Shown piece after piece: positions 24,401-42,357 of a DNA stretch of 64,000 nt. The DNA comes from Escherichia phage PC3. The notes beneath the pieces are model-generated. The model was not told the origin of the DNA, did no database searches, and worked only from the letters and a program-made list of their open reading frames with translations. The stretch lies in the sequence record ON184125; one strand, given 5' to 3'. How positions within the stretch are numbered: the stretch's first letter is position 1; the number at the start of each line of letters is the position of its first letter. Position numbers and translations under genes: made by a program.

Positions 24401-24425
24401 TTGATGTTACCAAACAAGAGGTCGA

Positions 24426-24448
24426 GGCGGTAATAATACCGCCTTTTT
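24426..24448 (+). terminator. hairpin with TAATAATA loop followed by T-run
   Basis: GGCGG-TAATAATA-CCGCC then TTTTT; loop sequence shared with hairpins at 39256 and 42094. Confidence 0.4.
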
Positions 24449-24450
24449 CT

Positions 24451-24861
24451 TCAATAGAGGTCTTCGGAAAAGAGTTCGCGGAAAGGGGTTGTCTTCAGGC
24501 GCACCTGATTGATCTGTCCAGCTTCACGGGCTACGATGCACGCCTCTTCACGAGTGAGGAAGTTGCCCTGGTTGTCGATGAATCCCTGTTCGCGGGTATG
24601 GGTGGATTTAATGACGCCTGCTTCTTTCAGGATCTTGAGCTGGCTGTTCATGAATCGGCTGTGGTGACGGTCAGCAACGACGATTACATCACCATATTTG
24701 TTGGCGGCAGCGACCACACGGCGCTCCCAGGCACCTTCGACAGGAAGGTCACGGGTGTACAATGGAATCATCGTATCACCGATGTCATCCCCCTTCACCT
24801 GTGAGAACAACTTGCCTTCAGTGCCCGTTGGGAGTTCACGAAAATATCCCAGTAATTTCAT
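24451..24861 (-). CDS. hypothetical protein
   Basis: 136-aa ORF. Confidence 0.45.
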   Translation of the reverse strand: MKLLGYFRELPTGTEGKLFSQVKGDDIGDTMIPLYTRDLPVEGAWERRVVAAANKYGDVIVVADRHHSRFMNSQLKILKEAGVIKSTHTREQGFIDNQGNFLTREEACIVAREAGQINQVRLKTTPFRELFSEDLY

Positions 24862-25177
24862 AATCTATTCAATCCAAATTTCAGGTTCAGAGATGTCGAC
24901 CATATCCACTGTCTGGTTCTTCAGATCACGGAAACAGTCGCCGAGGAATTGTATTTTGCCGTCGGTCAGGAACAGATGGCAAATGATGCTGGATCAGTTT
25001 CATTCACCAGCAGGCTCGGTGTGAACGTAGGCTCAATAACATTGTTGTTCCACGACCACATCGGACCTTGGGCATCACCCTTTACGCGATATGGGTGAAG
25101 TATATCACACCCAGGACAATGAAAATACAAGGAATCATCCGTAGACAGAAGTTTAGGGCTCAGAAGCTATGTTATGA

Positions 25178-25465
25178 TCAACCATCTACAGTGGCTTCAG
25201 GAACGTAGGGGCGCAGTTCACCAACCAGTTTCGGAAAGAGTGCAAGCCCAAACAGATTGAAAGAACGCATGGTGCCTACCATTGCAACATCTTCCCCTTC
25301 CTCGATATCTTTCAGGGCGCACATTGGGTAATATTCATCGACCTCTGGGTCTTCCGTCTCACCATAGAGACCAAACGCTACCTCTTCTTTGATAAAGCGA
25401 GGAACCAGGAAATCAAATAGGAAAATGATGAATACCACAGGTGCTGCAGAACGGAGATAGAACAT
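25178..25465 (-). CDS. small membrane protein
   Basis: Hydrophobic stretch AAPVVFIIFLFDFLV. Confidence 0.3.
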   Translation of the reverse strand: MFYLRSAAPVVFIIFLFDFLVPRFIKEEVAFGLYGETEDPEVDEYYPMCALKDIEEGEDVAMVGTMRSFNLFGLALFPKLVGELRPYVPEATVDG

Positions 25466-25507
25466 AGCACAACCCTCGCAGGTGAGGAGGGGCGAACCCC
25501 TCCGATG

Positions 25508-26839
25508 TTATAGGCCAAGAGCCTTTTCAAGGTCATCAAGGTCTTCAGTGTAAAGATCGATGTCCTCTTTCTTACTTAATTCCTTATATTGTGCTTCAAG
25601 GTTCTCAATCTGCTTGAGTAGGCGCTCACGGGCGTCCAGAGTAATAGACGACAGAGGCATCTTGAACAACTCGTCAAGATCACCACCAAAGTCCGGGTAG
25701 TCCTGCATGAACAGAGACTTCAGCACGTCAATCTTTTGGCGGAGATCAACACGCGTCGCCCATTCAATGAACACCGCCCGGTCACCCAGCTTGCGGATCC
25801 TGTCTGCCATGTCCTTCAACAGATACTGGCGACGGTCTTCGTACCGTGACAGGCGATAATTGAAGAACGGCAGCAACATGTCCCGCCAACCAGAATAACG
25901 ATGAATAACACCGTCTTCATCCCAGGCTGTCCAAACAGGCTTGGTGGCTGAATACAGTTTGAACATCTGCTCAACCTGCTCGTCACTCAGCTTAGAGAGT
26001 TCGCCGCGCTTAAACACAACCGTGATATCCCAGCCATCTTCGGTCGTGTCGTTGGCGTACTCGGTGAGGATACCTGCCTTGTACAGAGGCAGCAACACCT
26101 TGGTCTCATAGGTTTTGGCAAACCAGCCCACTGGGACTTCGGTGATATGCAGGGTCGTGGCATTGACCCGACGGAAGATACCACGACTGTATGCTCTTCC
26201 TTCCTCAGTATAGCCTGTCTCTCCTTTGAAGCCGTTCCAGTACGGTTTTAAGTCTTTCGGGTCTTCGCCACGGAGAAGCGCTCTCAGGGCATTCAGCACG
26301 GACTTAACGCAATGACACGGGGTGTCGGTGGAATATCCGGTGCCGATACCATTGATCCCATTCACCAGGAACATGGGTAGGATGGGCAGAAAGAACTTCG
26401 GCTCCAGCCTTTCTTCACCAAGGTAGTTGTATTCCAAGATACCCTCATCCTCCTTGCGGAAGATCTTGCGGATAACGTCAGATACAGCGACGGATATGTA
26501 TCGGGCAGATGAAGCATCACGCCCCATGATAGAACCAAACTGGCCATCGCGGTCAAAGTACGGGATGTTGTTCGTGCCTGGGAACCCCTGAGCCATGTTC
26601 ACGATAGTGCCGCTCATGTTCTCACCACCAGACTTGTAGTTGGTGCGAGCGGCGGCGAACATACCAAGGCGGTCAACAATCTCCTCCTTGTTGTACTCAA
26701 GAGCAGCGAAAAGGATCTTGCGCTGGCTTGGCTTGAGGCTGTCAATCAGCTGAGGGATTTGACGGATGCTGTTGACCACAGAAAACTGTTTATGGTCAGT
26801 GTTGACAAAGTCCGTTACAGTAATGCTCTTAGCAACCAT
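25508..26839 (-). CDS. DNA topoisomerase II medium subunit (T4 gp52-like, GyrA-type)
   Basis: N-terminal region resembles T4 gp52 (PSQRKILFAALE); start moved to internal Met at 26839 with GAGG RBS, giving 443 aa (T4 gp52 is 442 aa). Confidence 0.85.
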   Translation of the reverse strand: MVAKSITVTDFVNTDHKQFSVVNSIRQIPQLIDSLKPSQRKILFAALEYNKEEIVDRLGMFAAARTNYKSGGENMSGTIVNMAQGFPGTNNIPYFDRDGQFGSIMGRDASSARYISVAVSDVIRKIFRKEDEGILEYNYLGEERLEPKFFLPILPMFLVNGINGIGTGYSTDTPCHCVKSVLNALRALLRGEDPKDLKPYWNGFKGETGYTEEGRAYSRGIFRRVNATTLHITEVPVGWFAKTYETKVLLPLYKAGILTEYANDTTEDGWDITVVFKRGELSKLSDEQVEQMFKLYSATKPVWTAWDEDGVIHRYSGWRDMLLPFFNYRLSRYEDRRQYLLKDMADRIRKLGDRAVFIEWATRVDLRQKIDVLKSLFMQDYPDFGGDLDELFKMPLSSITLDARERLLKQIENLEAQYKELSKKEDIDLYTEDLDDLEKALGL

Positions 26840-26840
26840 C

Positions 26841-28739
26841 TTATTCATCCTCAGTTTCAAATAGGCAAACATCGCTAAACCAGGTTTTGCGGTAATCGGC
26901 GGCCTCGTCACCGAAGCCATTCTTCAGTGACTGTTGATAGCCATCGTCCAGCGTGACCGTCGTAGTATACGCATCCAGGTTGTTTAGAATACGTTTGAAG
27001 TCTTCAGTGCTGTTACCACCCAGACCTTTCAGATATTTCTTCTTCGTGATCTTCTTGGCATCAGGCGTCTTCAGGAACTCCTCATACTCTGCGTTGTTCA
27101 TGAACTCATGCATCACCTTGCCACACCACACACGCATGTAAGGGGTGCGCAGGAGCTTCAGCCTGCCCTGACGGACGTACTCCGGCCAGTAGGTGCAATA
27201 CAGGGTGATCAACAACCCACGGATGTGAATGCCGTCATCGTCCGCATCGGTAGCCACAACAGTCTGTGGGTAACGGGTGATGTCAAGGGGCTGGCCTGGT
27301 ACTGCACCGCCGTGGATCGTACACAGGTTCTTGAACTCTTCATTGTTCATCACCTTTGAGCGCGGGGCGTTCAGGCAGTTGATGAACTTACCACGAAGCG
27401 GGAACAACCCGATCTTCTTGGTGTCGCGGGCGTTCAGGATAGGATTGGAGGCACTATCACCCTCTGTCAGCAACAGGGAGCATCCGCTGCGGTCACCACG
27501 GGCGGTCGCCGGGTAATACTTCTCAATCTCACGATAATCCCGCTTGCTGATGTCCTTCTTGGCCTTTTCAAACTCAGCATCATCCTGCTCATTGCGCAGG
27601 GAAGCCAGTTCTTTGCTCAGACCAGCCGTAACGAACTCAAGCGCCTTGCGGATCAGTTTATCGCTGGGCTTGTACGACGTACCGAACTGGCTTACAGGAG
27701 TGGTCATGCGCTCCTTGGTCTGGCTGTCAAAGCGCGGGTTGTTGATGTCGGCGGCGATGAACAAGGACATGTGGTTCTTGATCATTGCTGGCTTCAGTTC
27801 GGTCTTGAACTTCTTCACCAGCTGGGGACGAATCGCTGCCACGATCTGGTCAGCAACATAATCAACGTGAGGACCACCGATGTGGGTGGCAATAGAGTTC
27901 ACGTATGATGCGTGCATGAACGTACCGGATGAAGGGGCTACAGCAACAGACCAATCCCCGGTTTCGTCAACAGCCGAACCAGCATGGAAGTAATCAACGA
28001 AGTGGCCAAAGCGGTCAATCCGGATTTGCTTCCCATTGAGAACAATCTTCAGGCGCGGGTTACACGCAGCCACTTCAAACGCGCGGCGATAGATCATCAG
28101 CAGGTTGTTCTGGTCAAGTCCTTTGACGCCCAGACGAGCATAGTCAGGGATCCAGGCGATGGATGTGCCGGGACTGTTCACGTTGCTGATGACTGGGTTA
28201 GATTTCTTGCTCATGTTGTCTTCAAACGTCTGAGTATAAGACTTCTTGCCGTCATTAGTCGTGACGCGGAACCATTTGGAGAACACGTTGACGAGGGACG
28301 CCCCTTCGCCATTCTGACCACCGGACTTCTGGTTGTTGTACTCTTCGTCTTCGTCGTTGAAGTTCGATCCTGCAAACAATTCTGAAAATAACATTTCTGG
28401 CAACCACATACCAGATTCATGCTTGACCACAGGGATACCCCCGTTGTCAGCAACGATGATTTGACCGTTCATCGGGGAAACTGTGACGGTGATTTCCGTC
28501 AGGGATTTACCCTCAGGGGTCTTGCTGTGGTCAACACAGTTGGTGATGATTTCATCAAACTGTTTGATAAGAGCGGGGTTATATTCAAAATTGTCTTTAA
28601 ACACAACTTTGTCTTTGCTGAGATCATATACCCAAGCCATCCCGACAGAAGAACGGATACTCCCTAGATGGCGCTCTGGGCGAAGGAGTATATGCTCGAT
28701 GTGTGAGAGCTTTTTGTATTTTCTGTTTACATCAACCAT
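26841..28739 (-). CDS. DNA topoisomerase II large subunit (gp39/gp60-type, GyrB-like ATPase plus Toprim)
   Basis: GHKL ATPase N-terminus and Toprim LLLTEGDSA motif; uninterrupted 632 aa. Confidence 0.9.
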   Translation of the reverse strand: MVDVNRKYKKLSHIEHILLRPERHLGSIRSSVGMAWVYDLSKDKVVFKDNFEYNPALIKQFDEIITNCVDHSKTPEGKSLTEITVTVSPMNGQIIVADNGGIPVVKHESGMWLPEMLFSELFAGSNFNDEDEEYNNQKSGGQNGEGASLVNVFSKWFRVTTNDGKKSYTQTFEDNMSKKSNPVISNVNSPGTSIAWIPDYARLGVKGLDQNNLLMIYRRAFEVAACNPRLKIVLNGKQIRIDRFGHFVDYFHAGSAVDETGDWSVAVAPSSGTFMHASYVNSIATHIGGPHVDYVADQIVAAIRPQLVKKFKTELKPAMIKNHMSLFIAADINNPRFDSQTKERMTTPVSQFGTSYKPSDKLIRKALEFVTAGLSKELASLRNEQDDAEFEKAKKDISKRDYREIEKYYPATARGDRSGCSLLLTEGDSASNPILNARDTKKIGLFPLRGKFINCLNAPRSKVMNNEEFKNLCTIHGGAVPGQPLDITRYPQTVVATDADDDGIHIRGLLITLYCTYWPEYVRQGRLKLLRTPYMRVWCGKVMHEFMNNAEYEEFLKTPDAKKITKKKYLKGLGGNSTEDFKRILNNLDAYTTTVTLDDGYQQSLKNGFGDEAADYRKTWFSDVCLFETEDE

Positions 28740-29562
28740 TATTATCTCCGTAAAATTTCAACCAGGCGGGATCTTCTTTTGGTATCCAACCTTTCTGAAA
28801 TTTAGATATACAAGTTTGAGCTGTGGCCTTAGAACAAACAGAGCTTAACCCGGTTTCTTTCAACATTAAACAATAACGGTTCTTCACTTTGTCTTCACCG
28901 TTACTATACCACCATTCAAAGAATTCACCAGCCAAGAGCCATTGTCGGGATTTACCCGTCTTTACGACAGTCGGGTGTTCCCAAGGTTGTATGTTATTCA
29001 TGGGATTGTTCTGGCGCCACATAGCAGAATACCTCTCCCTTTCTTCTGGTCGCCTCATCCGTTCGGTGACTGATTTGGTAAGATTGGCTTTGTGTGCTTC
29101 GGAGTGTGGTATCCCTTTCCTGGATTTTGACAACCTGCGCCTTGATTCGTCATTCCAAGTGTAACCTCTCAAACTATCCGCACGTTTCTTCTGTACTTCT
29201 GGGTTCAATGAGTTTTTCTTGGATTGCTTACGACAACGTTCCTTTTGTTCATCAGATGACATCACTTCTTTCATTCTGGTGGAATTATTTCTCCTCAATT
29301 CCCCAAACTCTTTGTTGTTCCTAGACATGTTGTTCATCCCAGTCCATGCCTTCCTGATACCGGGGTTGAGTGGTTTTGTTCTCCAAAGTAAGTGATGTAC
29401 GACATAATGTTCTTCTGGTGTCAACCATACAAGATTAGAGAAGTGGTTAGTGCCACCCAAGCACACAGGGATTATATGGTGGCGTTCTTGATAAACGCCA
29501 TCCATTTTACCTCTCTGTATTGCTCTCTGTATGAGAGCGTCTAAGATGATTTCGTATTTCAT
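28732..29562 (-). CDS. HNH homing endonuclease
   Basis: HHIIPVCLGGTNHFSNLVWLTPEEHYVVHH motif; C-terminal FQKGWIPKED module. Confidence 0.8.
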   Translation of the reverse strand: MKYEIILDALIQRAIQRGKMDGVYQERHHIIPVCLGGTNHFSNLVWLTPEEHYVVHHLLWRTKPLNPGIRKAWTGMNNMSRNNKEFGELRRNNSTRMKEVMSSDEQKERCRKQSKKNSLNPEVQKKRADSLRGYTWNDESRRRLSKSRKGIPHSEAHKANLTKSVTERMRRPEERERYSAMWRQNNPMNNIQPWEHPTVVKTGKSRQWLLAGEFFEWWYSNGEDKVKNRYCLMLKETGLSSVCSKATAQTCISKFQKGWIPKEDPAWLKFYGDNNG

Positions 29563-30140
29563 AAGCCAAATTTGCTACGCCACTTTTCAACCTTGTGTTC
29601 AATAGCGTGCTCCACTTTAATGCGAGTGGCCATCAAAGAGGATCCACGGATCGCCCCTTCCCCACACCCCATGCGCGCAACATGCTTGATTAGGTCATTG
29701 ACGAGTTGATCCAATCTGTCTTGACTGCGATAAGGCTGGTTACACAATCGGATAATCCGGCCATGATAATGATGGATAAGATTCAGATGCTTTTGAGGAT
29801 CACGATCAATCAGACGGAACCAGTCTTCTTCCAACAGATTAGAAGAAATATCGTTCACTATCGCCATGTGGTTGATGACAGAGTCGATCATTTCGGCCTT
29901 GTTCATAGAGCCGCGCATTTGGACGTCGTCATAATCCATGACGTACAGAAGGTCAATAGCAGAGATAATGACATCAGCAACTTCGCCATTCAACGGCTCG
30001 GAAGATACTATGCCATGAAACACATCAGACAGTTCACAGATCTCTTCACCTAGTTTGTTCAGAACAAACACAGGCGAACGGTCTGGGGTATGAGCAGTGC
30101 AGTCATAAGAAGTGTCGACGATAGTGTGTAGAAATTTCAT
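29559..30140 (-). CDS. MazG-like all-alpha NTP pyrophosphatase (candidate)
   Basis: LGEEICELSD and EVADVIISAIDL resemble the MazG EExxE/ExxD pattern. Confidence 0.4.
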   Translation of the reverse strand: MKFLHTIVDTSYDCTAHTPDRSPVFVLNKLGEEICELSDVFHGIVSSEPLNGEVADVIISAIDLLYVMDYDDVQMRGSMNKAEMIDSVINHMAIVNDISSNLLEEDWFRLIDRDPQKHLNLIHHYHGRIIRLCNQPYRSQDRLDQLVNDLIKHVARMGCGEGAIRGSSLMATRIKVEHAIEHKVEKWRSKFGL

Positions 30141-30640
30141 TTCAAAGTTCCTTGTATGCGGAGACGATTAATGTGGGCAATGATATAGTCCATAGAGTTT
30201 TGAAAACTGTATTTCCCGTTCTGAACATATGCATGGATCAGGGGTAGGCGACTGTACGCCAATCTGATTTTCAGACGTTCAGGCATTGTCTGGAGTTTCA
30301 TACTAGTTGCAAATAGGATATCGCGCTTGAATTCTTCGGTGGACGGGTCCAGGACAATGACGCGAGAAGCCGCCAATCCCTGTCCATATTGCTTGGCCTC
30401 ATAACCGTCGAGCAGGCGCAGGTTGTCATCCCTATACTTCAGCCAATACCAGTACCCCTCCATGGAGTTGAACACACCATGTTCATGGGTAGTCATTGGA
30501 TGATGGGTAAAATGCGAGAGGAAGCGCCCGAGTTCCGTCTGGCTCCGGCTATAGATGTTGAAGTGATTCTTACCCTCTGTTGCAGGGGTCATCTTGTTCT
30601 GTGGAACGTTCATTAACAGCATCATGATGTAGTTTCTCAA
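30137..30640 (-). CDS. hypothetical protein
   Basis: 167-aa ORF. Confidence 0.5.
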   Translation of the reverse strand: MRNYIMMLLMNVPQNKMTPATEGKNHFNIYSRSQTELGRFLSHFTHHPMTTHEHGVFNSMEGYWYWLKYRDDNLRLLDGYEAKQYGQGLAASRVIVLDPSTEEFKRDILFATSMKLQTMPERLKIRLAYSRLPLIHAYVQNGKYSFQNSMDYIIAHINRLRIQGTLK

Positions 30641-30667
30641 ATCAAAGTATTGCTGTGTGTAGTGAAA

Positions 30668-30865
30668 TTACTTCTTCATGCAGCCCATATAACTACAGGC
30701 CAAGCCGATAGCGGCGAATACGATAGCCAGGACAAATCGGGTTATCTGCATTTGTGGTATTGTGAGCAGCCCGATCACGTTTTCGATCGTCAGGAAGAAA
30801 CACACCCCAGCGACGACACCGAATTTGAACGAGTTTCGTTCTTTGTAGATCTTGAACCTGAACAT
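30668..30865 (-). CDS. small membrane protein
   Basis: 65-aa ORF, two hydrophobic helices. Confidence 0.3.
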   Translation of the reverse strand: MFRFKIYKERNSFKFGVVAGVCFFLTIENVIGLLTIPQMQITRFVLAIVFAAIGLACSYMGCMKK

Positions 30866-30910
30866 ATGCGCCTCCTGATTGAAGCGGGGAGTTTCCTCCC
30901 CTGTAACTAT

Positions 30911-31411
30911 CTAGCCCAGAAACACTACTAAAGTCAAATTAGTGAGGGCGCTGCGACCTTCCCGCAGCATTTCATGCGCAGATGCAAGGCGCTTGGGGTC
31001 ATGCAACGTATCAGAGAACACGATGATGTTTGCTTTATCGATGTCCGTGCCCATGTAATGGGAGATGGTTGTCGTGTGCTGTTTCTTGTCTACATCGGGC
31101 AATGATACATCCGCGCCTGCTCGGGAGCGGAAGAAAGAATCGCGTTCACTAACGCTATGGAAGACACCCATGATGTTGAGGTTGTTCTCTGTCTGGAAAT
31201 CATAGGACAGAATCTTCTTCAGCGCGGCGGTGTGCCCAGTCTGGCGCAGCATGCGATAGTACAGTATGTTTCCAGGACAGGTGGGGTCCGTCACACCTCC
31301 CCTCGATTGGCGATCTTTCTGGATTTCATACGCATCCAGGATAAGTTGTTGGACCATTTCAATATGGGCAGTCAGGGAGATTTCGACTTTACGTTTGACC
31401 ATGGATTTCAT
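30911..31411 (-). CDS. hypothetical protein
   Basis: 166-aa ORF. Confidence 0.5.
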   Translation of the reverse strand: MKSMVKRKVEISLTAHIEMVQQLILDAYEIQKDRQSRGGVTDPTCPGNILYYRMLRQTGHTAALKKILSYDFQTENNLNIMGVFHSVSERDSFFRSRAGADVSLPDVDKKQHTTTISHYMGTDIDKANIIVFSDTLHDPKRLASAHEMLREGRSALTNLTLVVFLG

Positions 31412-31479
31412 TTGGTGTATCCTCAGTTAGGTTCCGCTCATGGGGAACGGGTCCATTATACACCAAATGCTGGAAATGA

Positions 31480-31501
31480 AAAAGAGGCCGGAGCCTCTTT
31501 T
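31480..31501 (-). terminator. rho-independent terminator (AAAAGAGGC-CGGA-GCCTCTTTT)
   Basis: 9-bp GC-rich stem, tetraloop, T-run on the minus strand; core GAGGCCGGAGCCTC shared with 33557-33578. Confidence 0.6.
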
Positions 31502-31754
31502 AGTCTTCATATTTGCCTGTCCTGAAGTTCCACTTTCGCGCATTCTTCAGGTCCAGGTCTTTGAAGATGTTTCCAAAGATCTTTTGGAAGGAGGTCTGCT
31601 CTTGTTCTTCCTCAAGATCCTTGGGCTTCTTGACAGGCTCTTTCACCATACCGCCTTCGGGTTTCCCCACATCGGCGGTCGTGGTTCCAGGGGCTGTCGA
31701 GTCTTCAAGGAAGTCCTGGAAGCCTTTCATGATTAGATCGCAGCCATTTCGCAA
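31500..31754 (-). CDS. hypothetical protein
   Basis: 84-aa ORF. Confidence 0.35.
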   Translation of the reverse strand: MRNGCDLIMKGFQDFLEDSTAPGTTTADVGKPEGGMVKEPVKKPKDLEEEQEQTSFQKIFGNIFKDLDLKNARKWNFRTGKYED

Positions 31755-32913: not shown

Positions 32914-32943
32914 ATTGAATAAGTTCAGCTGTTGTACACCGGC

Positions 32944-33556: not shown

Positions 33557-33578
33557 AAAAGGAGGCCGGAGCCTCCTT
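33557..33578 (-). terminator. rho-independent terminator (AAAAGGAGGC-CGGA-GCCTCCTT)
   Basis: GC-rich stem, T-run on the minus strand directly downstream of the 33594 gene end. Confidence 0.6.
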
Positions 33579-33593
33579 GGTGGATGGGTTTGG

Positions 33594-35156
33594 TTACTTG
33601 TACAGACCTGTCACGTCAATAGACTTGTGCTGGCGGTTGTACTCAGCAGTGTAGTCATCCAACACCAGGTATTCACAGCAGCGGATCTTGCTGGAGCCAT
33701 AGTCGTTGGTAATAGACACGATGTCTTTCGGGTTCAGCTTACAGCGAACAACGCGCTGGCCAACAGAACCGAAGCACTGTTTCAGATAGGCCAGGGAGCA
33801 AACGTGCAAACCGTATGAACACAGGTCAGAGTTGTTGTCGTTCACGAATGAGCGAGCCATCCGCACGATAGTGCCTGGGGCGTTGCTGATCGTGTTGCTG
33901 TGCTTGTCCATGTAGTTGCCGCGCACCGATTTGTAGAGGATGATGTCACCATCGTCGTCAATTTCGATGTCAGAGTACGCCATGAACTCATAGATGCGCC
34001 CAGACTGAACCAGAGAAGCTGACGGGTTCTGGAACATTTTGTCCATAAACTTCGCCATGCGGTCCAGGTTGTGGAAGTCACCCTTCAGCATCAGCGCCAG
34101 TACACGCTTGGCGATGGATGTGCCTGTGATGTCATGACCGGACCAGCGGACACGGTTGTCAGACACGTCTACCAGACCAGCAGCGTACTTCGCGATGGCT
34201 TCACGAGGGCGCATCAGCGAGTATGCCAGCTTCACGTCTTTGTCTTTGATCGCCTGTACGATGCGGTCATAGGCCGGGTGTGAAGTGGTGATCGTTTCCG
34301 GCTTGCCGTCAATCGCGATAACAACGCTGTCAGGCAGAATCAGGATCTGGTGTTCGTTCAGGAACACGTCCAGGTCTTTCGCTCCGAAGTCCTGCTTGGT
34401 CTTCTTGTCATCAGCCACTTCTTCAACATCTTTGATGGCGACGGTGAATTCTACAGAAGACAGAGCCAGACGCAGGGTGCGACCGAGGATGCCATCAAAG
34501 TAACCAACACGGCGACGGGCATCCAAGGATCCACGAATAGGATAGGTTTCCCCGTCAACCACAACGCTGATTTCAACGTTGCTCGGAACTTTGTCCGCAC
34601 CTTCTGACAACGCCACAGAAATTTCTGCCATCTTGCCGATATCTTCAACATCGAAAGCGCGACTATCACCTTCCACAGGAGTCAATTCAGACTTTTCAAA
34701 GAAAGCCCCTTTGAAATTGTCGTCGTTAGTGAGACACAGATACTTGTTGTGGTTCGGCAGATATGCCCCAACATACCATTCTGTGCCATCTTTGTCTTTG
34801 GCCGTGCCGCCCGGTTGGACCTCGAACACTTCTTGTTCTTCCGGCTTGATAGGAGAGATCACAGTTACCTTGTTTTTCTCCTCGGTAATCCGGACCAACA
34901 GGGCACGGGCGATCGTCTTGGCGCTTACAGCAAAGAACTCAGCCAGGGCACGGTTGCTTTCACCAGCCTTGCTCTTCATCTGAATCTGCTGAATCTCTTC
35001 AGTGGTAAGAGATTTCAGCGATAACGGGTTGACACCGAGTTCCGTGTCTGCAACACGTTGTACAGTCGAGCGGGGTATGCCCAACAGAGTAGCAATTGCG
35101 CTCTGGCTTTTGCCTTCCTTCAAATGCTTCAGGATCTTTTCTTCAATCTTGTTCAT
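33594..35156 (-). CDS. rIIB-like protein (candidate) with N-terminal HTH
   Basis: Immediately downstream of the rIIA-like gene on the same strand; start moved to MNKIEEKILKH; HTH-like SQSAIATLLGIPRSTVQRV. Confidence 0.35.
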   Translation of the reverse strand: MNKIEEKILKHLKEGKSQSAIATLLGIPRSTVQRVADTELGVNPLSLKSLTTEEIQQIQMKSKAGESNRALAEFFAVSAKTIARALLVRITEEKNKVTVISPIKPEEQEVFEVQPGGTAKDKDGTEWYVGAYLPNHNKYLCLTNDDNFKGAFFEKSELTPVEGDSRAFDVEDIGKMAEISVALSEGADKVPSNVEISVVVDGETYPIRGSLDARRRVGYFDGILGRTLRLALSSVEFTVAIKDVEEVADDKKTKQDFGAKDLDVFLNEHQILILPDSVVIAIDGKPETITTSHPAYDRIVQAIKDKDVKLAYSLMRPREAIAKYAAGLVDVSDNRVRWSGHDITGTSIAKRVLALMLKGDFHNLDRMAKFMDKMFQNPSASLVQSGRIYEFMAYSDIEIDDDGDIILYKSVRGNYMDKHSNTISNAPGTIVRMARSFVNDNNSDLCSYGLHVCSLAYLKQCFGSVGQRVVRCKLNPKDIVSITNDYGSSKIRCCEYLVLDDYTAEYNRQHKSIDVTGLYK

Positions 35157-35187
35157 CTTGTAGTTCCCACGTTGGTTAACAGGACTA

Positions 35188-37944
35188 TTATGCCCTGATA
35201 ATGGAATTTGAAATAACGTCCAAGTAATCCGAAGAATTTTCAATCGGGTTCAGGGCGCTTGGTTTGTAATTCTCTTTCAAGAACCGGACAACACGATGAC
35301 GTTCTACGGTCATGCGGTTCGCCTTTTTCGCGTTCCGTGTTGGCGTCTTCAGTAAATCAAACGGCACGAATCCATGAATCCTCAGAACTTCCGATGCGTG
35401 ACTGAAGATTTGCAACATGCGTTGTTCAGCGCGGAACACCCTTTCATCCCGCTCATTGGTGTACAGATTCAGATTCAGAGTGCTGATCGTATCCTGGAAA
35501 TGTTTGAAGCGGCGAACCTCATGAAGGGAAACACTACGCTTCGACATCGCCTGATAATGGCGGATAGTTTGTTCGTCCAAGATATCGTCAACATAATCCA
35601 GCATTTGGTTATACCGATTAACCAGCTGATTATAACGCCCGTCTTCCCCTTCACCGAACGCCTGTTTTACCAGATGACACCCGTATTTCAGGCGATTAGA
35701 ACCAAGGTGAAGTCTCTGATGAGATTTCAGCAACCGTATCGCGTTGTGGCGTTCCAGCATCGGCCTGGCATTCTCCAACATAATCTTCAGAATCTCATCA
35801 ATCGGTATGAAGACCTCTGGGAACTTCTTCATCATTGGCACGGATTTACGGCGAGCCAGGAAGATCCTCTTGTGAACGTTCAGCATGTCGCTGATATACA
35901 CTGGCTTGCCATCTTCATCCGCGTGAACGGCATGTTTGTAGAGAGACTCGCGAATACCCCGCGCCGCATCTGTGGTCAACGTTCTGCCCATCACCTGGTG
36001 GATACACTCATAGCCAGACACCTCAATATAGACGATGCGCTCGCCCTTGTTGATGATATCTGAGATCTGGTCGCCCGTCAGTTCTTCTTGCAGGCAGATA
36101 TCGAAGTTTCTGGACGTGAACGGAAACAGGCCAGGGTCTTTGGTGACCGGGGGCGTGACATACGTCAGTTCGTTCATGAACTTAACTTCAGCAGGCTCCA
36201 GCACCGCACTCAGCCAATCGACGAACTTGTCAGCGAAGCACAGATAATCAACCGTCGTTTCTTCTTTGCCAATCCAAGTTTCAAAGAAATCATAGAGAGC
36301 CTGAGAATTCTTGAACGCAGGGTTATCCTTAGATTGGTTGCGCTTGGTGACATAGGATGTGTTCGGCTTGGCCACGATGACTATCGTCCCTGTATCTTTC
36401 AGCTGCTTGATCTTCAGGTTACGAGCACGAACACTATCTTCGATCACCACAGTAACATGCTGGCCGCGATCAATCCAATTCTGGATTTCTGAGATAGTCA
36501 AAGTACTGGACTCACCCCAGTCATAGAAGATCTCCATAGAGAACGGCGACGACAATTCATTGAACGGCGCGGTGTGGTCATAGTCACGGTCGATCTCAAC
36601 AGGCAGCGGGTAACGGTAATATGAATCATGAAAGCGCTTGTCTGCTGGGTATTCCTTTTCAACCATCTTACGGAACCCACTGCCGAACATTTCACTCAGT
36701 TTTACCTTCTCCATATACAGGGCAAGAGGACCGCGCTTACACGCCAGCTCCAGGTCACGCATCTTTTCTGTCAAGATTGCATTGGCGGTGCCCTTAAACT
36801 CCTCAGAGAGCGTCTCACGCGTGAATTCGTCATATGAAAGGTCTTCACGCGACGGTGGTACGTTCAGCGAGCCAAGTTCGAAGAACGTATAGGACGATGG
36901 AAACTTGCTCATGATGGAAGCAGTGTCCGGGTCCAGCTGGTCCAGGTCAATCGGGTACGACACACCACCCATTACAGCGTAGTGGGTGTTCCCCTGGCCT
37001 TTCGGCTGGATGTACGTGTTGTTGACCTTGAATTCATAACTGATATCTTCCCAGCTGAAGCGGTATGAAGCGTTCTCAACAATTGGACGTTGTTCAGGGC
37101 GCATAACACGACCAAGGCGAACCAGTTCATCAGAGAATGCGGAGAAGCGAGCGTTCTTCACCGGGATCTTCACCGTCATGCCGTTGAACTCATCGGTGTC
37201 TTCCGGCTTAGGATCACGGGTTTCAAGATCTTTGGTGATCAGATCAACAGTCGGGATGCGCTTGGCATTCAGGTACATCAGGAAGCGATGGAGTTTACCG
37301 TCCATGCGGCTTTCCACAGTGAACGAATCCGATACCGCAAATGGTGATTTGGAGCCAAGACCGAATGCCCCAATCTGATCATCATCTTCTTCCTTCGTAC
37401 TGTGGAAAAGAGTGGTATACAACCCAGGCGTACGAATGATTTCACCATCTTCGCGACGGAACACTAGACCACCATTATAGAACGCAGGCACGCCGATGAC
37501 CTCAGCTGAGTCAGGGATCTCGTCTTCCTTGACCACCATGTTGCCTTCCAGCAACACTTCATCTTCCTGCGCTGGGATAGGCTCGCCAATGATCTTCTCG
37601 AGTGGCAGACCGATGCCGTAATCACGGATTTCCAGCCATGGTTCAAAGTCGTCAGGCAGATGGACGATGACTGGTGTACCCTTCGGTGCCAGGAACTTAC
37701 TATGGCGCTGTGGAGGGGGAGTGAGAGGCGCGTAGTGGGATGCTACCATACGGTGCATACGATCACGCATGCCATGGGAGTCGATGGCGTTACAGACGGT
37801 TTCGCGCAGGGCTGCAGCCTCTTTGTAACGATACAATGATGAGAACAGAGTCTCAAACATCTTATCGTTCATCTTCACGTTGAACGCCTGCCCCTGAATG
37901 GAAGACGACGAGCGGATAAAGTGCTCGGACTTGCGCATTTTCAT
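35188..37944 (-). CDS. rIIA-like protein with GHKL-type ATPase N-terminus
   Basis: ETVCNAIDSH, DYGIGLP and GAFGLGSKS motifs resembling Bergerat-fold ATPase boxes; 918 aa. Confidence 0.5.
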   Translation of the reverse strand: MKMRKSEHFIRSSSSIQGQAFNVKMNDKMFETLFSSLYRYKEAAALRETVCNAIDSHGMRDRMHRMVASHYAPLTPPPQRHSKFLAPKGTPVIVHLPDDFEPWLEIRDYGIGLPLEKIIGEPIPAQEDEVLLEGNMVVKEDEIPDSAEVIGVPAFYNGGLVFRREDGEIIRTPGLYTTLFHSTKEEDDDQIGAFGLGSKSPFAVSDSFTVESRMDGKLHRFLMYLNAKRIPTVDLITKDLETRDPKPEDTDEFNGMTVKIPVKNARFSAFSDELVRLGRVMRPEQRPIVENASYRFSWEDISYEFKVNNTYIQPKGQGNTHYAVMGGVSYPIDLDQLDPDTASIMSKFPSSYTFFELGSLNVPPSREDLSYDEFTRETLSEEFKGTANAILTEKMRDLELACKRGPLALYMEKVKLSEMFGSGFRKMVEKEYPADKRFHDSYYRYPLPVEIDRDYDHTAPFNELSSPFSMEIFYDWGESSTLTISEIQNWIDRGQHVTVVIEDSVRARNLKIKQLKDTGTIVIVAKPNTSYVTKRNQSKDNPAFKNSQALYDFFETWIGKEETTVDYLCFADKFVDWLSAVLEPAEVKFMNELTYVTPPVTKDPGLFPFTSRNFDICLQEELTGDQISDIINKGERIVYIEVSGYECIHQVMGRTLTTDAARGIRESLYKHAVHADEDGKPVYISDMLNVHKRIFLARRKSVPMMKKFPEVFIPIDEILKIMLENARPMLERHNAIRLLKSHQRLHLGSNRLKYGCHLVKQAFGEGEDGRYNQLVNRYNQMLDYVDDILDEQTIRHYQAMSKRSVSLHEVRRFKHFQDTISTLNLNLYTNERDERVFRAEQRMLQIFSHASEVLRIHGFVPFDLLKTPTRNAKKANRMTVERHRVVRFLKENYKPSALNPIENSSDYLDVISNSIIRA

Positions 37945-38020
37945 AGTATAGAAATCCTATCAATGTCAAAGGGGAACATATTGGTTGAGTGGGTATAATA
38001 CGGTGGGTGTCTTCAATTGA

Positions 38021-38043
38021 AAAAGCCCTCGGCTGAGGGCTTT
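38021..38043 (-). terminator. rho-independent terminator (AAAAGCCCTC-GGCT-GAGGGCTTT)
   Basis: GC-rich hairpin with T-run on the minus strand downstream of the 38051 gene end. Confidence 0.55.
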
Positions 38044-38050
38044 GTTCAGA

Positions 38051-38479
38051 TCAATCTTCGGTGGCGAATCGCGCCTGGAAGTCGAATGTTGGGCGCTGGG
38101 CACCAGGTTCCAACTTCTCTTCCAGATAGCCGATGATGGTGCGAGTGACCGACACAGGCTCTTTGCGTGGGTTGACTGGAGTAGCCAGCGCGATGATAGA
38201 GGACTGCTGCTCTTCTACACGCGTGTATTCCACATTAAAGTGATAGCGAGAACCAAAGGCCGCCACTTCGACTTTAACGATTTGTAGATCTTTCAGGTCA
38301 GTGCTGCTCAGGGTTCCCACGTTCAACTGTGAGCGCAGGTGCTCAACAATGTTGGAGTACACATACTGTGGGGTGATCAGCTGTTCAATAGAACTCATAA
38401 CATATCCTCTACTTTTGGGTTCGGTTTTACTTAATCGAGCGACCTCTGCTCGAAGGAAGATTATCTCGTCGGTCATCAA
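38051..38479 (-). CDS. hypothetical protein
   Basis: 142-aa ORF. Confidence 0.45.
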   Translation of the reverse strand: MMTDEIIFLRAEVARLSKTEPKSRGYVMSSIEQLITPQYVYSNIVEHLRSQLNVGTLSSTDLKDLQIVKVEVAAFGSRYHFNVEYTRVEEQQSSIIALATPVNPRKEPVSVTRTIIGYLEEKLEPGAQRPTFDFQARFATED

Positions 38480-38736
38480 ACATCACCCATGATCTGGCCA
38501 ACTTTGGAGTGTCTGTAGAAAGATCCTTCAGACACTCCTCACTTACGTTTGCGCTTGTTCTTTCCATGAGTCTTCGCCTTCTTCTTGCGGGTTACAGATG
38601 GACGACCATGTCCCGGTTCGCCGGGTGTGCCACCCTGAGTGTAACGACGCCCCCACATGTCATCACCACGATGCGCGGCGACGATTTCCATTTCTGACAG
38701 CGCTAGCATAGCAGCAACAGCCCGCAGATGATTTCT

Positions 38737-39273
38737 TCATTTCGTTTCCCCCTTGGCAGCATAGGACAGTGCCTGAACAATCATTACAGCCAGATCGATC
38801 GGCGAGTAGGTGCTGTTCAGATCTTCTCGAACACTCTGCTCGATTTCTTCATCAGACTGGACCACAGGACAGTTCTTTCCCTGGCGACGGCGTTCTGTGT
38901 TGATCATATCACGCAGGAGCAGATTGGTGAAGGAGTACTCGTCAAAGTTCTCCAGGTATTTCTGAATCCCAGTGGATACAGGGGTTGGCTCCGGCTCCTT
39001 TGCCCCAGGATCTTTCAGGGCAGCAACAGTGGCATCAATATCCCACAGAGGGTTCATCAGTAACAGAAGATTAACTGTTTCTCCTGACTCTGAAGTCGGG
39101 TTATTTCCCAGCACCTTGTAAAGATTCTTCAGGGTGCTGTCAAAGGTCAGAACGGTCTGTGCCAGTTCTTCATAAGTTGGTTTGGTAGTCATCAGCGTTT
39201 GCTCCGGCGTTTGTTCTTCATCTTTCTTGGCTTGTCTGTCATGTTCCTGTCCACGAAAAAGGGGATAGAGCAA
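38737..39273 (-). CDS. hypothetical protein
   Basis: 178-aa ORF. Confidence 0.45.
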   Translation of the reverse strand: MLYPLFRGQEHDRQAKKDEEQTPEQTLMTTKPTYEELAQTVLTFDSTLKNLYKVLGNNPTSESGETVNLLLLMNPLWDIDATVAALKDPGAKEPEPTPVSTGIQKYLENFDEYSFTNLLLRDMINTERRRQGKNCPVVQSDEEIEQSVREDLNSTYSPIDLAVMIVQALSYAAKGETK

Positions 39274-39292
39274 TAATACCCTATCCCCTTTT
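39256..39292 (-). terminator. long hairpin (AAAAAGGGGATAG...CTATCCCCTTTT) with CAATAATACC loop
   Basis: 13-bp stem flanked by A/T runs on both sides; sits between two minus-strand genes. Confidence 0.5.
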
Positions 39293-39304
39293 ATTGAAGA
39301 ACGA

Positions 39305-39718
39305 TTAGTCTTCAGATTCTACTTTGCCGCCTCGTAGATCCCGAACTGGTTTACCGTCCGGTGTCATCACATAAATGGTGTTGATTGTCTCAAACCAAGA
39401 CAGCTGGTCAACACCCTCGGTGTATGGGGTCACCGGAACAGAAGTCTTGACCTCTTTGCCTTTCGTGTTCGGATGTTCAACCACATCCAAGAACGCACAT
39501 TTCCCGCTCGGAAGGATCACACCATCAGTAAACAGCACGATCTTCTTGCGAGGGTTGCTGGCCTCACCCAGGCACACCACCAGATGATGGATCATCTCGG
39601 GGCGGTCAATCAACATGTCGTCTTTGATAATCCCTTGCTTGATAGCAGAGATCACCACTTCATCCAACAGAGCCTGCTGTTGGTCCAGTGTCAGGGATTC
39701 AGTGAGTTTCACGCTCAT
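39305..39718 (-). CDS. hypothetical protein
   Basis: 137-aa ORF. Confidence 0.45.
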   Translation of the reverse strand: MSVKLTESLTLDQQQALLDEVVISAIKQGIIKDDMLIDRPEMIHHLVVCLGEASNPRKKIVLFTDGVILPSGKCAFLDVVEHPNTKGKEVKTSVPVTPYTEGVDQLSWFETINTIYVMTPDGKPVRDLRGGKVESED

Positions 39719-39722
39719 GACA

Positions 39723-40292
39723 TCAGCCTTTGAAGTTAATCGGTTTCTGAATACCAGCGTCGAACGCGGCCTGGGTACGGGTATCGCTCACCACCTGGCA
39801 GGTCTTGTCAAGGTCGATGCGCGGGTAGCCGAACACACCAGCAATCAACGAACCAGGGAACTGAGCCAGCTTGGTTTCGTATATTGCGCAGATATCCAGC
39901 TTCTTGGTCTGGCTGATGCGGAATTCATCACGCCCAGAACTGATCACCACCTGGATCTCTTTGTACAGGCTGGAATCGAACTGAATATTCTGCTCTTGGA
40001 TCCACTGCATGACGGCCTTGGAACCATCAGCGCCATAACGCCCTTCGAACGTGCCTTTGATCACTTCCTTCAGACCGTCTTTATACATGTCAGGAATCTG
40101 CGCCGTCTCTTGAACTTTGAGCGTGTAGTTGCTCAGGTAGTTCTCGGAGTCTTTGTTGAACTTCTTGACCTGCTGCTCAGTGCGGTTGAAGTCGTTGAAG
40201 TAGCTGATGACTGTACCGATGCCGAGAATCACTACACCCAGCAAAGCCAAACCAATTATCCAACCTGTTGCAATACCCTTAGATTGAGACAT
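39723..40292 (-). CDS. LemA-like membrane protein (candidate)
   Basis: N-terminal TM helix followed by a soluble domain with LemA-like composition; weak assignment. Confidence 0.35.
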   Translation of the reverse strand: MSQSKGIATGWIIGLALLGVVILGIGTVISYFNDFNRTEQQVKKFNKDSENYLSNYTLKVQETAQIPDMYKDGLKEVIKGTFEGRYGADGSKAVMQWIQEQNIQFDSSLYKEIQVVISSGRDEFRISQTKKLDICAIYETKLAQFPGSLIAGVFGYPRIDLDKTCQVVSDTRTQAAFDAGIQKPINFKG

Positions 40293-40310
40293 TCTTACTT
40301 CCTCTTTTGA

Positions 40311-41426
40311 TTAAAAATTAAACGGATAACGACGACGGCCACCATTGTACTCCATTCGCTGCAATATGAAAATTGCGGTGAATGGTAAGCAGCCCAGCAG
40401 AACAACAACCACAACTTCCCAGGTCTTGAGTTCCCGCCACTTCAGGTACTCCATTTCCTTCATCTCAACGCGGTTGTAGCCTTTGGTGATGTTAGCGACA
40501 ACATCAGCCATGACACCGACGCCCATGTCGTGGCCTGTGAGAGTCATGCCATTGCGAGAGTGTAGTTCACGGTTATGCATACCATCAGCGAACGAAGTGC
40601 TCTTACCCCAGTTGATCTTCAGATCTTTGCTGATGTCGGTCACGACGATAACGTCGTTCTTTTTACCACCATCCCAAGCATAGACCAAGCCCTGGAAGTA
40701 TTCAACTGGCTGACCGGATGTCACAACCCAGACGATATTGACCTGACGTGAAGCACCTAATGTTTTCAGAGTATTGTTCAGATAGTCGTTCCAGTATGTG
40801 GTCGGTAACGCCAGGCCGGACACATTCAACACACGAGTGACACGATAGTAGTCATAGACCTCAGGGTACTTGGGAATCTTGTCTTTGAAGCGTTCAGCAA
40901 ACTGCTGGTCTGAGCGGGAGAACAGAGAGTCTTTGTTACCCAGTACATAGTTCATGTAGGAATGCTCACGGGCTGCGGGTTCGCCGATCTGAACCTGCGC
41001 CCAGCGCGGGGGCTGACCAAGACCGCGACGATCAATGCGGTCAATCGTCAGATTACCGACAGTCGTCAACACATCCCAGTCCACGTCATATGAATGCTCA
41101 TAACATGTACTGCAATGACGCGTTTTTGTACAAGATCGGTTATTTCCTGAACCTGTACAAGATGTGGTGTAGTAGCAGTTGCATTCATATGAATGCTCAC
41201 AGCTCACCTTATTCCGCTCCTTTGCAGTGACGTACCCGTTCAGGATCTCAACATCCCCTGAACTGCCAAGGGAGAACGCAGCATAAGCCCCCGCCTGAAT
41301 CAGACAGGATAGCACCACTACAATCGCGGTCGCTATCAGAGTCTCTTTCGGCTCATGGGTCTTGCGGTGGTAGATCACAAACAAGATAGCCAGTACCAAT
41401 GGCACACCAAACAGGAGGTAGATCAT
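40311..41426 (-). CDS. membrane protein with Cys-rich extracytoplasmic domain
   Basis: N- and C-terminal TM helices; CEHSYECNCYYTTSCTG...CSTC cluster. Confidence 0.45.
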   Translation of the reverse strand: MIYLLFGVPLVLAILFVIYHRKTHEPKETLIATAIVVVLSCLIQAGAYAAFSLGSSGDVEILNGYVTAKERNKVSCEHSYECNCYYTTSCTGSGNNRSCTKTRHCSTCYEHSYDVDWDVLTTVGNLTIDRIDRRGLGQPPRWAQVQIGEPAAREHSYMNYVLGNKDSLFSRSDQQFAERFKDKIPKYPEVYDYYRVTRVLNVSGLALPTTYWNDYLNNTLKTLGASRQVNIVWVVTSGQPVEYFQGLVYAWDGGKKNDVIVVTDISKDLKINWGKSTSFADGMHNRELHSRNGMTLTGHDMGVGVMADVVANITKGYNRVEMKEMEYLKWRELKTWEVVVVVLLGCLPFTAIFILQRMEYNGGRRRYPFNF

Positions 41427-41662
41427 TTGGATTCACCGACGAGCTGCGCCTTGGTCATCCCAAGGAGTTGATCTTTATGCTCAGGATTGGCACCGTTCTT
41501 TAACAACAAATCCCAACGCTCTTCATGGTACTGTGGGTCCAGTGCTTCATCAAATGTGATGTGGTGGCGGAACATAATAGTTGCCACTGAATGGACACAG
41601 TGAGCGATTGCGCGCTTCATTGTTCGAGTATTCTTGTTCATCTTGTACACCCTCCGACACAA
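41423..41662 (-). CDS. hypothetical protein
   Basis: 79-aa ORF. Confidence 0.35.
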   Translation of the reverse strand: MCRRVYKMNKNTRTMKRAIAHCVHSVATIMFRHHITFDEALDPQYHEERWDLLLKNGANPEHKDQLLGMTKAQLVGESK

Positions 41663-41862
41663 ATGATATTCAGTTCGCCACGGACAAACCCATTCTTACC
41701 GGAGGATTTGTTGCCGTTCAGCATTTTCCACAGCCCATCAGCGTCGCCCAATTCCGGCATCTGATACTGTACCACAGGGGTCTTGCGATCTTCTTCGAGC
41801 ATTACAGACACCATAGATTCGATATCCAGGGAGTCCATATCTTCAATTCGTTGCATTGCCAT
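41638..41862 (-). CDS. hypothetical protein
   Basis: 74-aa ORF. Confidence 0.35.
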   Translation of the reverse strand: MAMQRIEDMDSLDIESMVSVMLEEDRKTPVVQYQMPELGDADGLWKMLNGNKSSGKNGFVRGELNIICVGGCTR

Positions 41863-41874
41863 AGTGAAATCCTC

Positions 41875-42072
41875 TTAATAGAGTTTGGTGTATGTTTGTT
41901 TGACACGCATAAAAGTGCTCATATATTTTTGTGATCCCACCAAATGAGCAAACGCAATTTCTGCCGAACTCTTGTCCTTGAACTCCAGAACGGAAGTGTC
42001 TACTGCAATAGATTGATTCTTCCCGTCGAAGCCAACGGTTGTCACTAAGATCTTATAATCTTGGGTTTCCAT
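41875..42072 (-). CDS. hypothetical protein
   Basis: 65-aa ORF with RBS-like AAGGA upstream. Confidence 0.35.
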   Translation of the reverse strand: METQDYKILVTTVGFDGKNQSIAVDTSVLEFKDKSSAEIAFAHLVGSQKYMSTFMRVKQTYTKLY

Positions 42073-42093
42073 GATGTATATCCTTGCAAAAGA

Positions 42094-42128
42094 AAGGGGA
42101 ACGGGCTAATAATAACCCATTCCCCTTT
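42094..42128 (-). terminator. hairpin (AGGGGAACGGG...CCCATTCCCCT) with TAATAATAA loop plus T-run
   Basis: Downstream of small ORF 42154-42321; followed on the minus strand by TTTCTTTT. Confidence 0.45.
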
Positions 42129-42153
42129 ATTGAAGGAAGCAACCCCAGTCAGA

Positions 42154-42321: not shown

Positions 42322-42357
42322 GATAATATCCTCGCTTTATAGGCGAGGATATTTATA

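Follow-up and report, generated by a model that had tools for sequence, protein, structure and literature searches.

The window analysed here is a 64,000-base stretch of DNA from Escherichia phage PC3 (ON184125), and our subject is a set of five intergenic hairpins within it, two of which probably enclose a promoter element. Positions 24000-44000 of the window are 100% identical to the genome of Escherichia phage PH4 (ON184126.1; Ackermannviridae, Aglimvirinae), and the window as a whole corresponds to positions 91896-155895 of ON184126.1 with one base of difference, a T at window position 28371 where the record has a C (position 120266), within the gene for the large subunit of topoisomerase II. 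Genome-wide counts were taken from the full 155,895-bp PH4 record with its 191 annotated genes; positions given below as "record" refer to it. The five hairpins occupy short intergenic gaps in the early region, where rIIA, rIIB and the topoisomerase II genes are found; the genes on either side of each gap are on the minus strand, which is therefore the strand transcribed. All five are present at, or within 1-2 nucleotides of, the places given for them in the original prediction, which had been made from the bare sequence; with refined coordinates (hpA 24425-24444, hpB 31480-31501, hpC 33559-33578, hpD 39257-39292, hpE 42093-42128) they are as follows, N12 standing for a spacer of 12 nucleotides.

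24456-24425, minus strand: hpA, an 8-bp hairpin AGGCGGUA-UUAU-UACCGCCU (24444-24425) with TATTAT at its apex (24438-24433), preceded by TATTGAAGAA (24456-24447).
31501-31480, minus strand: hpB, AAAAGAGGC-UCCG-GCCUCUUUU, downstream of PH4_000155; free energy -15.2 kcal/mol, z-score -3.8.
33578-33559, minus strand: hpC, AAGGAGGC-UCCG-GCCUCCUU followed by UUC, downstream of rIIB.
39298-39257, minus strand: hpD cassette, TTCAATAA (39298-39291), N12 and TATTAT (39278-39273), the last at the apex of a 16-bp hairpin (39292-39257) that ends in UUUUU.
42134-42093, minus strand: hpE cassette, TTCAATAA (42134-42127), N12 and TATTAT (42114-42109), the last at the apex of a 16-bp hairpin (42128-42093) followed by CUUUUG.

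Folded as minus-strand RNA, each of the five is far more stable than shuffled sequence (free energies of -14.8 to -30.8 kcal/mol; z = -3.7 to -6.1). A U-tract lies directly 3' of the stem on this strand in hpB (UUUUU), hpC (UUUUC), hpD (UUUUU) and hpE (UUUCUUUU).

The hairpins hpA, hpD and hpE (family 2) had been grouped together because their loops were thought to contain TAATAATA. This word is exact in hpA and hpE only, hpD having CAATAATA instead, so that the word common to all three is AATAATA; moreover, most of the supposed loop is paired, and what caps the three hairpins on the minus strand is a UUAU tetraloop. Read on the plus strand, TAATAATA is the reverse complement of a -10-type hexamer, which appears as TATTAT on the transcribed strand. 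In hpD and hpE this hexamer sits in the apical loop, and the hairpin fills the 12-nucleotide spacer that separates it from the upstream box TTCAATAA. On the minus strand both hairpins gain 8-9 kcal/mol in stability (hpD, -27.6 versus -18.1 kcal/mol on the plus strand; hpE, -30.8 versus -22.6), because their G·U pairs exist on that strand only.

Comparison of the hpD and hpE orthologues from 12 phages representing three clades reveals what is held constant. The box is invariant, the spacer always measures 12 nucleotides, and the hexamer is TATTAT, TAATAT or TATATT, thus always TAnnnT. When the sequences are aligned without gaps from the box onwards, the columns that do not vary are those of the box and T25, A26 and T30 (the first, second and sixth bases of the hexamer, or T1, A2 and T6), which correspond to T-12, A-11 and T-7 of the putative -10 element. 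The stems, in contrast, drift by compensatory substitutions and indels while the box, T1/A2/T6 and the spacing stay; in the hpE of Taipeivirus, for instance, a G has been lost from the 5' arm, a C has been lost from the 3' arm and a C has been gained beside the loop, with the result that N12 is kept. A test of the helix itself found 91% of the cells paired versus at most 70% when the partners were slid, with five pairs changed on both sides and a score reached by none of 500 shuffles. The original prediction held that the hairpins are conserved beyond what termination requires, and, to judge from these alignments, the sequence information in family 2 does exceed the needs of termination, T1/A2/T6, N12 and the box being retained in three clades; for family 1 (hpB and hpC, discussed below) a UNCG loop and a stem suffice.

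The box extends well beyond these two loci. A census of intergenic k-mers on the transcribed strand yielded 32 copies of TTCAATAA in the genome versus 5.5 expected, 21 of them intergenic and distributed over 17 intergenic regions; GGTATTAT occurs in six. When the sites of TTCAATAA were listed, a pattern emerged, TTCAATAA-N12-TA(T/A)(T/A)AT, and the more general TTCAATAA-N12-TAnnnT has ten occurrences in the genome versus 0.08 expected from Markov-simulated genomes. Nine of the ten are intergenic; in eight of these nine a same-strand start codon follows 29-81 nucleotides after the end of the site, and for the ninth it is more than 1 kb away. Variants with N11, N13 and N14 spacing exist alongside the ten exact sites. 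Generic promoter and terminator scans gave counts not above those of shuffled sequence and proved too noisy, and our own census of hairpins was used instead. Among 58 strong hairpins in one-directional contexts, an apical hexamer resembling TATAAT (at least five of six matches) is found 14 times in the sense and three times in the antisense orientation. The expectation that the hairpins would prove more alike than random terminators is thus borne out for family 2, as judged from both this bias and the count of ten versus 0.08, and not for the family 1 pair taken alone; as to the motif search, it recovered the box architecture for hpD and hpE and none at hpA. The following sites of the window belong to the same class or share some of its parts.

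47234-47202, minus strand: TTCAATAA (47234-47227), N12 and TATAAT (47214-47209), the last in the loop of AGGGGGA-TATAAT-TCCCCCT; same class.
1171-1209, plus strand: TTCAATAG (1171-1178), N13 and TATAAT (1192-1197) at the apex of a 13-bp hairpin (1181-1209), then a T-tract; same class.
7406-7444, plus strand: TTCAATAA (7406-7413), N14 and TATAAT (7428-7433) at the apex of a hairpin (7416-7444); same class.
9975-10000, plus strand: box and hexamer, TTCAATAA (9975-9982), N12 and TATAAT (9995-10000), with a stem of 5 bp only (CCCAT/ATGGG).
59231-59206, minus strand: box and hexamer, TTCAATAA (59231-59224), N12 and TATAAT (59211-59206), without a strong hairpin.
38043-37995, minus strand: terminator and hexamer, AAAGCCCUC-AGCC-GAGGGCUUU (38043-38022), TTCAATTG (38021-38014), N13 and TATTAT (38000-37995), downstream of rIIA.

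The layout of hpD and hpE, a box and then a hairpin, recurs at the first three of these sites and at record positions 33884 and 34145. At record position 77026 the hexamer lies just 3' of the stem, and at record position 47275 and window position 59231 box and hexamer occur with little or no hairpin; the combination is therefore not merely a part of the hairpin. The orthologue of the terminator at 38043-37995 in phage KWBSE43-6 is annotated as "terminator" and is followed by TTTTTCAATTG. A second promoter-like class was also seen in the genome, TTTACT(T)-N16/17-TATAAT or TATACT, with a -35 resembling that of T4 early promoters and with TTCAATAA in the spacer, 6-8 nucleotides before the -10 (window position 51633 on the plus strand; L002:23656, L002:35165, L003:18665 and L003:23991).

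Taken together, these observations suggest that hpD and hpE are probably terminator hairpins with a -10 promoter element nested in them behind the conserved TTCAATAA box. The original prediction had proposed a sequence-specific function for the conserved loops, such as a protein-binding or an RNA-processing site. The first of these alternatives is retained in modified form, since the likeness of the family 2 loops is best interpreted as that of a DNA-level -10 element bound by the sigma factor of RNA polymerase, and the second is not favoured. The 16-bp RNA hairpin with its U-tract would stop transcripts arriving from upstream; at the DNA level, the box would be positioned 12 bp upstream of the loop hexamer (TATTAT, of the form TAnnnT), and RNA polymerase would re-initiate at the nested promoter, with a start site in the 3' arm. 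Transcripts made in this way would have no 5' arm and, we propose, would read through their own hairpin. Termination, initiation and a factor reading the box are what we infer here from the observed structure, conservation, spacing, enrichment and orientation.

Several points weigh against this reading. Promoter and terminator activity alike are predicted. TTCAATAA is not a -35 element of the sigma-70 type, and a canonical sigma-70 promoter had to be rejected, as taking TTCAAT for the -35 leaves a spacer of 14 bp and no consensus hexamer is present 16-18 bp upstream, the 17-bp position included; initiation would therefore need a further factor or a recognition independent of a -35. Ackermannviridae phages carry hypermodified thymidines, and the rules of sigma-70 may therefore not transfer directly. 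Ten early proteins of PH4 were scanned against Pfam, and none showed a domain resembling MotA or AsiA (PH4_000064, annotated as a "transcription factor", proved to be an HU-type DNA-binding protein), and the ViI-like phages are stated to have no MotA/AsiA homologues (Kutter et al. 2011). As hpD and hpE are paralogous, the counts from the helix test represent non-independent events, and much of the evidence for conservation comes from closely related genomes. Finally, the nested-promoter model does not cover all three members of family 2: hpA is without the box, has no U-tract on the minus strand (CUCGACC follows the stem), has a T-tract on the plus strand and folds better on the latter (-17.6 versus -14.8 kcal/mol).

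What precedes the stem of hpA is TATTGAAGAA, the reverse complement of TTCTTCAATA, and a sibling with the same leader, TATTGAAGA, lies some distance away on the same strand.

20999-20968, minus strand: hpA sibling, TTATTGAAGA and then AGGGGGAGU-AUAU-ACUUCCCUU, with TATACT at the apex.

The apex of hpA in relatives is TATTAT, TATCAT (EspM4VN and AG3) or a perfect TATAAT (Mooltan). A plus-strand promoter of the type TTCAATAG-N12 was tried at hpA and dismissed, as no TAnnnT follows. Possible roles of hpA are those of a promoter without a box, of a hairpin that stabilises RNA and of a terminator for antisense transcripts. Plus-strand promoters using the AATAAT of the loops (e.g. TTGCAA-N18-AATAAT, 42084-42113) were likewise rejected, being weak, not conserved as a class and at odds with the sense bias of the apical hexamers.

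Of the competing explanations, the one that survives best, and which we nevertheless regard as unlikely, is that all five hairpins are plain intrinsic terminators or RNA-stabilising 3' hairpins, with the likeness of the loops and of TTCAATAA stemming from common descent and from the A-rich leader of bidirectional terminators, and with no promoter involved. Orthologues have indeed been annotated or predicted as terminators, the paralogy of hpD and hpE fits common descent, and the box contributes an A-tract (AATAAA) that pairs with the U-tract. This explanation leaves unaccounted for, however, the constancy of T1/A2/T6 and of N12 where stems have undergone indels, the 14:3 excess of sense over antisense among -10-like hexamers at apices, the sites with box and hexamer and no hairpin, and the replacement of TATTAT by a perfect TATAAT in the hpA of Mooltan.

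Improbable, in our view, is a site acting at the RNA level, that is, UUCAAUAA together with a hairpin carrying a UAUUAU-type loop, bound by a phage protein either as a nut-like boxA/boxB antitermination signal or as the target of an endoribonuclease. A conserved 8-mer followed by a hairpin with a variable stem and a conserved loop does resemble the boxA and boxB of lambda nut sites, and the motif is strand-specific. The hexamer, however, is fixed in nucleotides from the box and not in its place in the structure, since it sits at the apex of hpD and hpE, just outside the stem on its 3' side at record position 77026, and without any stem at record position 47275, and it varies in the manner of -10 elements (TATAAT, TATTAT, TATATT, TAATAT, TATCAT, TATGAT). 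The U-tracts after the hairpins are also unlike boxB, and an Rfam search of the whole window, which found only two tRNAs and a group I intron, gave no match at these sites.

Less probable still is a small mobile or recombinogenic repeat, subject to shuffling of the PeSL type (see below) or similar to REP/MITE elements, which would spread and move genes. The original prediction had listed the propagation of a small repeat among its possibilities, and this idea is weakly supported in so far as hpD and hpE are paralogous copies sharing about 45 of 53 positions, including a 14-nucleotide 5' flank (CGTTCTTCAATAAA in most relatives). Three exact copies of AACCCCGC-TTCG-GCGGGGTT exist elsewhere in the genome, and several indels between relatives end 0-33 nucleotides from hpA, hpC, hpD or hpE. 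Both paralogues occupy the same loci in three clades, however, so the duplication is old and nothing shows recent spread or ongoing mobility, and the genes inserted beside hpA and hpD have no second flanking cassette. Although four or five of about 11 indel events end within 33 nucleotides of the five hairpins, roughly one third of the intergenic DNA in the 20-kb region lies within that distance of them (partly an estimate), and the association of breakpoints is therefore not above expectation, the count being near that expected among intergenic events.

We see very little chance for a DNA hairpin promoter, akin to those of the N4 virion RNA polymerase, in which the inverted repeat would extrude as a cruciform in supercoiled DNA and expose a single-stranded -10 for a start independent of a -35: the hexamer does coincide with the loop on the non-template strand, and a -35 consensus is missing, but the two or three G·U pairs in the hpD and hpE stems are A·C mismatches on the other DNA strand, which argues for selection at the RNA level, and stemless members exist.

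A broader proposal can also be made, which we offer as a possibility of rather low probability: TTCAATAA-N12-TAnnnT may constitute a phage-specific class of early or middle promoters in Ackermannviridae, with the box, at about -32 to -25, read by a phage activator in a "sigma appropriation" resembling that by MotA/AsiA yet without homology to it, and with many of the promoters nested in terminators so as to insulate and re-prime early genes. The parallel is with the MotA-dependent middle promoters of T4, in which a phage-specific box takes the place of the -35 at a distance of 12 +/- 1 bp upstream of a sigma-70 -10 element, TAnnnT (Hinton 2010, PMC2988021). The boxes themselves differ, TTCAATAA here and (a/t)(a/t)(a/t)TGCTTtA in T4, and the Ackermannviridae, unlike T4, have no known MotA or AsiA homologue.

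The closest described system is that of the PeSL (promoter-early stem-loop) cassettes of T4-type phages (Arbiol et al. 2010, PMC2839356; Comeau et al. 2014, PMC4122927). As in PeSLs, a predicted promoter and a predicted terminator stem-loop are combined in the gap separating two early genes, and the stem-loop overlaps the -10 or is placed between it and the upstream element; in hpD, hpE and the sites at 1171-1209, 7406-7444 and 47202-47234 the order is box, 5' arm, -10-like loop hexamer, 3' arm. The -10 variants of PeSLs (TAYWAT, TAWWAT, TATTAT) are similar, and in both systems the cassettes adjoin genes that differ between close relatives, the indels near those of PH4 being about as frequent as an intergenic location predicts. 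At hpB a promoter-like site directly follows the terminator on its 3' side. Differences concern the phages, Ackermannviridae instead of T4-likes, and the upstream element, TTCAATAA at N12 instead of a TTGACA- or TTTAC-type -35 at N17. Near-identity is restricted to hpD and hpE, other PH4 members sharing just the box and the hexamer, and no evidence for recombination between cassettes or for mini-circles was seen in the PH4 sequence.

Several of these elements have been catalogued before. In phage phiSboM-AG3, the list of rho-independent terminators (Anany et al. 2011, PMC3121705, Table S2) contains the orthologues of hpC (Torf002, gggggcttcggcctcc), hpA (Torf021, ggcggtatcattaccgcc), hpE (Torf248, ggggaatgggttaatattagcccgttcccc) and the hpA sibling at 20968-20999 (Torf031), those of hpB and hpD being missing from it; in GenBank, orthologues of hpA, hpB, hpC and hpD are annotated as "terminator" in the entries for KWBSE43-6 and Mooltan. 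Early promoters predicted for phiSboM-AG3 (PMC3121705, Table S2) include Porf009 (TTttCA-N16-TATAAT), corresponding to the site immediately 3' of hpB, Porf237 at the site orthologous to window positions 47202-47234, and Porf067, which overlaps the terminator Torf069 at the orthologue of 1171-1209; Porf067 and Porf237 were predicted there as sigma-70 promoters with -35 assignments other than TTCAATAA. Promoters and terminators are kept separate in these lists, and neither the TTCAATAA-N12 architecture nor a -10 in a loop nor UNCG loops are noted. An earlier informatic analysis was unable to identify early promoters in Ackermannviridae (Kutter et al. 2011), and a 2024 review of the family mentions neither promoters nor terminators. 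Our search of the literature turned up neither such cassettes nor the TTCAATAA motif for Ackermannviridae, and no transcript-start data for these phages, and a full-text search for TTCAATAA returned only unrelated primer sequences. The terminators as such were thus already known, and the putative nested-promoter architecture with its TTCAATAA box appears, as far as we could find, to be undescribed for the family.

The remaining two hairpins, hpB and hpC, call for a simpler explanation. The exact core that they had been said to share, GAGGCCGGAGCCTC, does occur exactly twice in the 155.9-kb genome, at these two sites. On the transcribed strand it reads GAGGC-UCCG-GCCUC, the hairpin being of the C(UNCG)G tetraloop type and flanked by an A-tract on its 5' side and a U-tract on its 3' side. 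No loops other than UCCG and UUCG occur at hpB and hpC in 12 relatives from three clades, among them eight Aglimvirinae, Kuttervirus Mooltan and Taipeivirus KWBSE43-6 (UUCG in the last two), so that the N position alone varies. The stem of hpC has undergone a compensatory double change in KWBSE43-6, from GAGGC/GCCUC to GGGGC/GCCCC (A-U to G-C), and one change of A to G within Aglimvirinae has turned an A-U pair into G·U, which is valid in minus-strand RNA only. In a column-permutation null based on 33 strong tetraloop hairpins, at least one pair with an identical stem top and loop arises with P = 0.20, and the GAGGC/UCCG identity of hpB and hpC alone is therefore not beyond chance. Both hairpins have the make-up of ordinary intrinsic terminators, with an A-tract, a stem of 5-6 G+C-rich bp closed by C-G, a UNCG loop and a U-tract, and termination at them is inferred from these features; the 14-mer common to them would be the residue of a short, strong stem combined with the extra-stable UNCG loop. 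C(UUCG)G and other UNCG hairpins were reportedly first noticed in T4 intergenic regions, by Tuerk et al. in PNAS in 1988. The hairpins of PH4 share with them the C-G closing pair, the U-N-C-G loop, the short G+C stem and the location in phage intergenic regions, the loop being UCCG at both PH4 sites.

Among the 33 strong intergenic tetraloop hairpins of the genome, nine have UNCG and seven have GNRA loops. Pairs of hairpins identical in the five-nucleotide stem top and the loop number eight genome-wide versus 0.22 expected, and none of 20,000 permutations reached eight; recurrent hairpin types are a general property of the PH4 genome. The three exact copies of the terminator AACCCCGC-TTCG-GCGGGGTT lie outside the window (L002:2564-2583, L002:5397-5416 and L002:23595-23616), two of them after tail-spike genes with a common 3' flank, CTTATTAT, and related CCCCGC stems with other loops are found at record positions 24087, 31808 and 49826.

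The surroundings of hpB and hpC hold further features.

31480-31455, minus strand: promoter-like site after hpB, TTCATTTC (31480-31473), N12 and TATAAT (31460-31455), overlapping the U-tract of hpB.

This site can alternatively be parsed as TTTTCA-N16-TATAAT, and its TATAAT is kept in three clades. At 31431-31448 on the minus strand, in the predicted 5' leader of the gene for a histone-like protein (PH4_000154), another hairpin, GTTCC-CCAUGAGC-GGAAC, is conserved in Aglimvirinae, Kuttervirus and Taipeivirus with variable flanks and may be a regulatory element of the leader. The 224-nucleotide "intergenic" region after hpC contains an unannotated open reading frame of 43 amino acids (MKLFCRCGGCDFTDEGYAMHVYCCNCCGKYVTVYRRTKHGEET; 33353-33484, minus strand), which corresponds to the C-terminal part of a 101-amino-acid Cys-rich protein of relatives (gp43 of ChubbyThor). 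The 5' part of this small zinc-ribbon gene is deleted in PH4, A221 and AV101, and the edge of the deletion abuts the U-tract of hpC.

Some other observations were made along the way. Homing-endonuclease genes in or beside the topoisomerase II genes (26820-26843 and 28721-29566) separate PH4 from relatives by their presence or absence, and their breakpoints are unrelated to the hairpins. The group I intron found by Rfam (48882-49269, minus strand; 58.6 bits, E-value 2.7e-12) lies in the 402-nucleotide gap between the DNA polymerase reading frames PH4_000178 and PH4_000179, and the DNA polymerase gene thus appears to be split by a self-splicing intron. The two tRNA genes at the Rfam threshold (55958-56043 and 56300-56373, minus strand) lie in a 3-kb stretch without annotated coding sequences (about 55585-58599), which holds more tRNA-like hairpins. 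The start-codon context (T)ATATCATG or TACATCATG recurs upstream of many genes (e.g. 42076, minus strand), and TATATCATG has ten copies in the genome, in eight intergenic regions. The most intergenic-specific word of the genome is CTAAATAC(C), with all ten copies of CTAAATAC being intergenic (53490, 49173 and 18871 on the minus strand, 63353 and 59488 on the plus strand of the window, among others); it is probably a gp55-type late promoter of Ackermannviridae, comparable to TATAAATA of T4.

The hairpins themselves are ordinary and, as detailed above, have been listed before as terminators. The Ackermannviridae, or ViI-like phages, are widely used in biocontrol and therapy, yet very little has been described of the signals that govern their early and middle transcription. 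The conserved TTCAATAA-N12-TAnnnT, often found inside predicted terminator hairpins, provides a concrete and directly testable candidate for a promoter class in this family. Such a class would extend the PeSL-type design of a terminator with a built-in promoter beyond the T4-like phages, and the motif would aid the annotation and engineering of Ackermannviridae phages.

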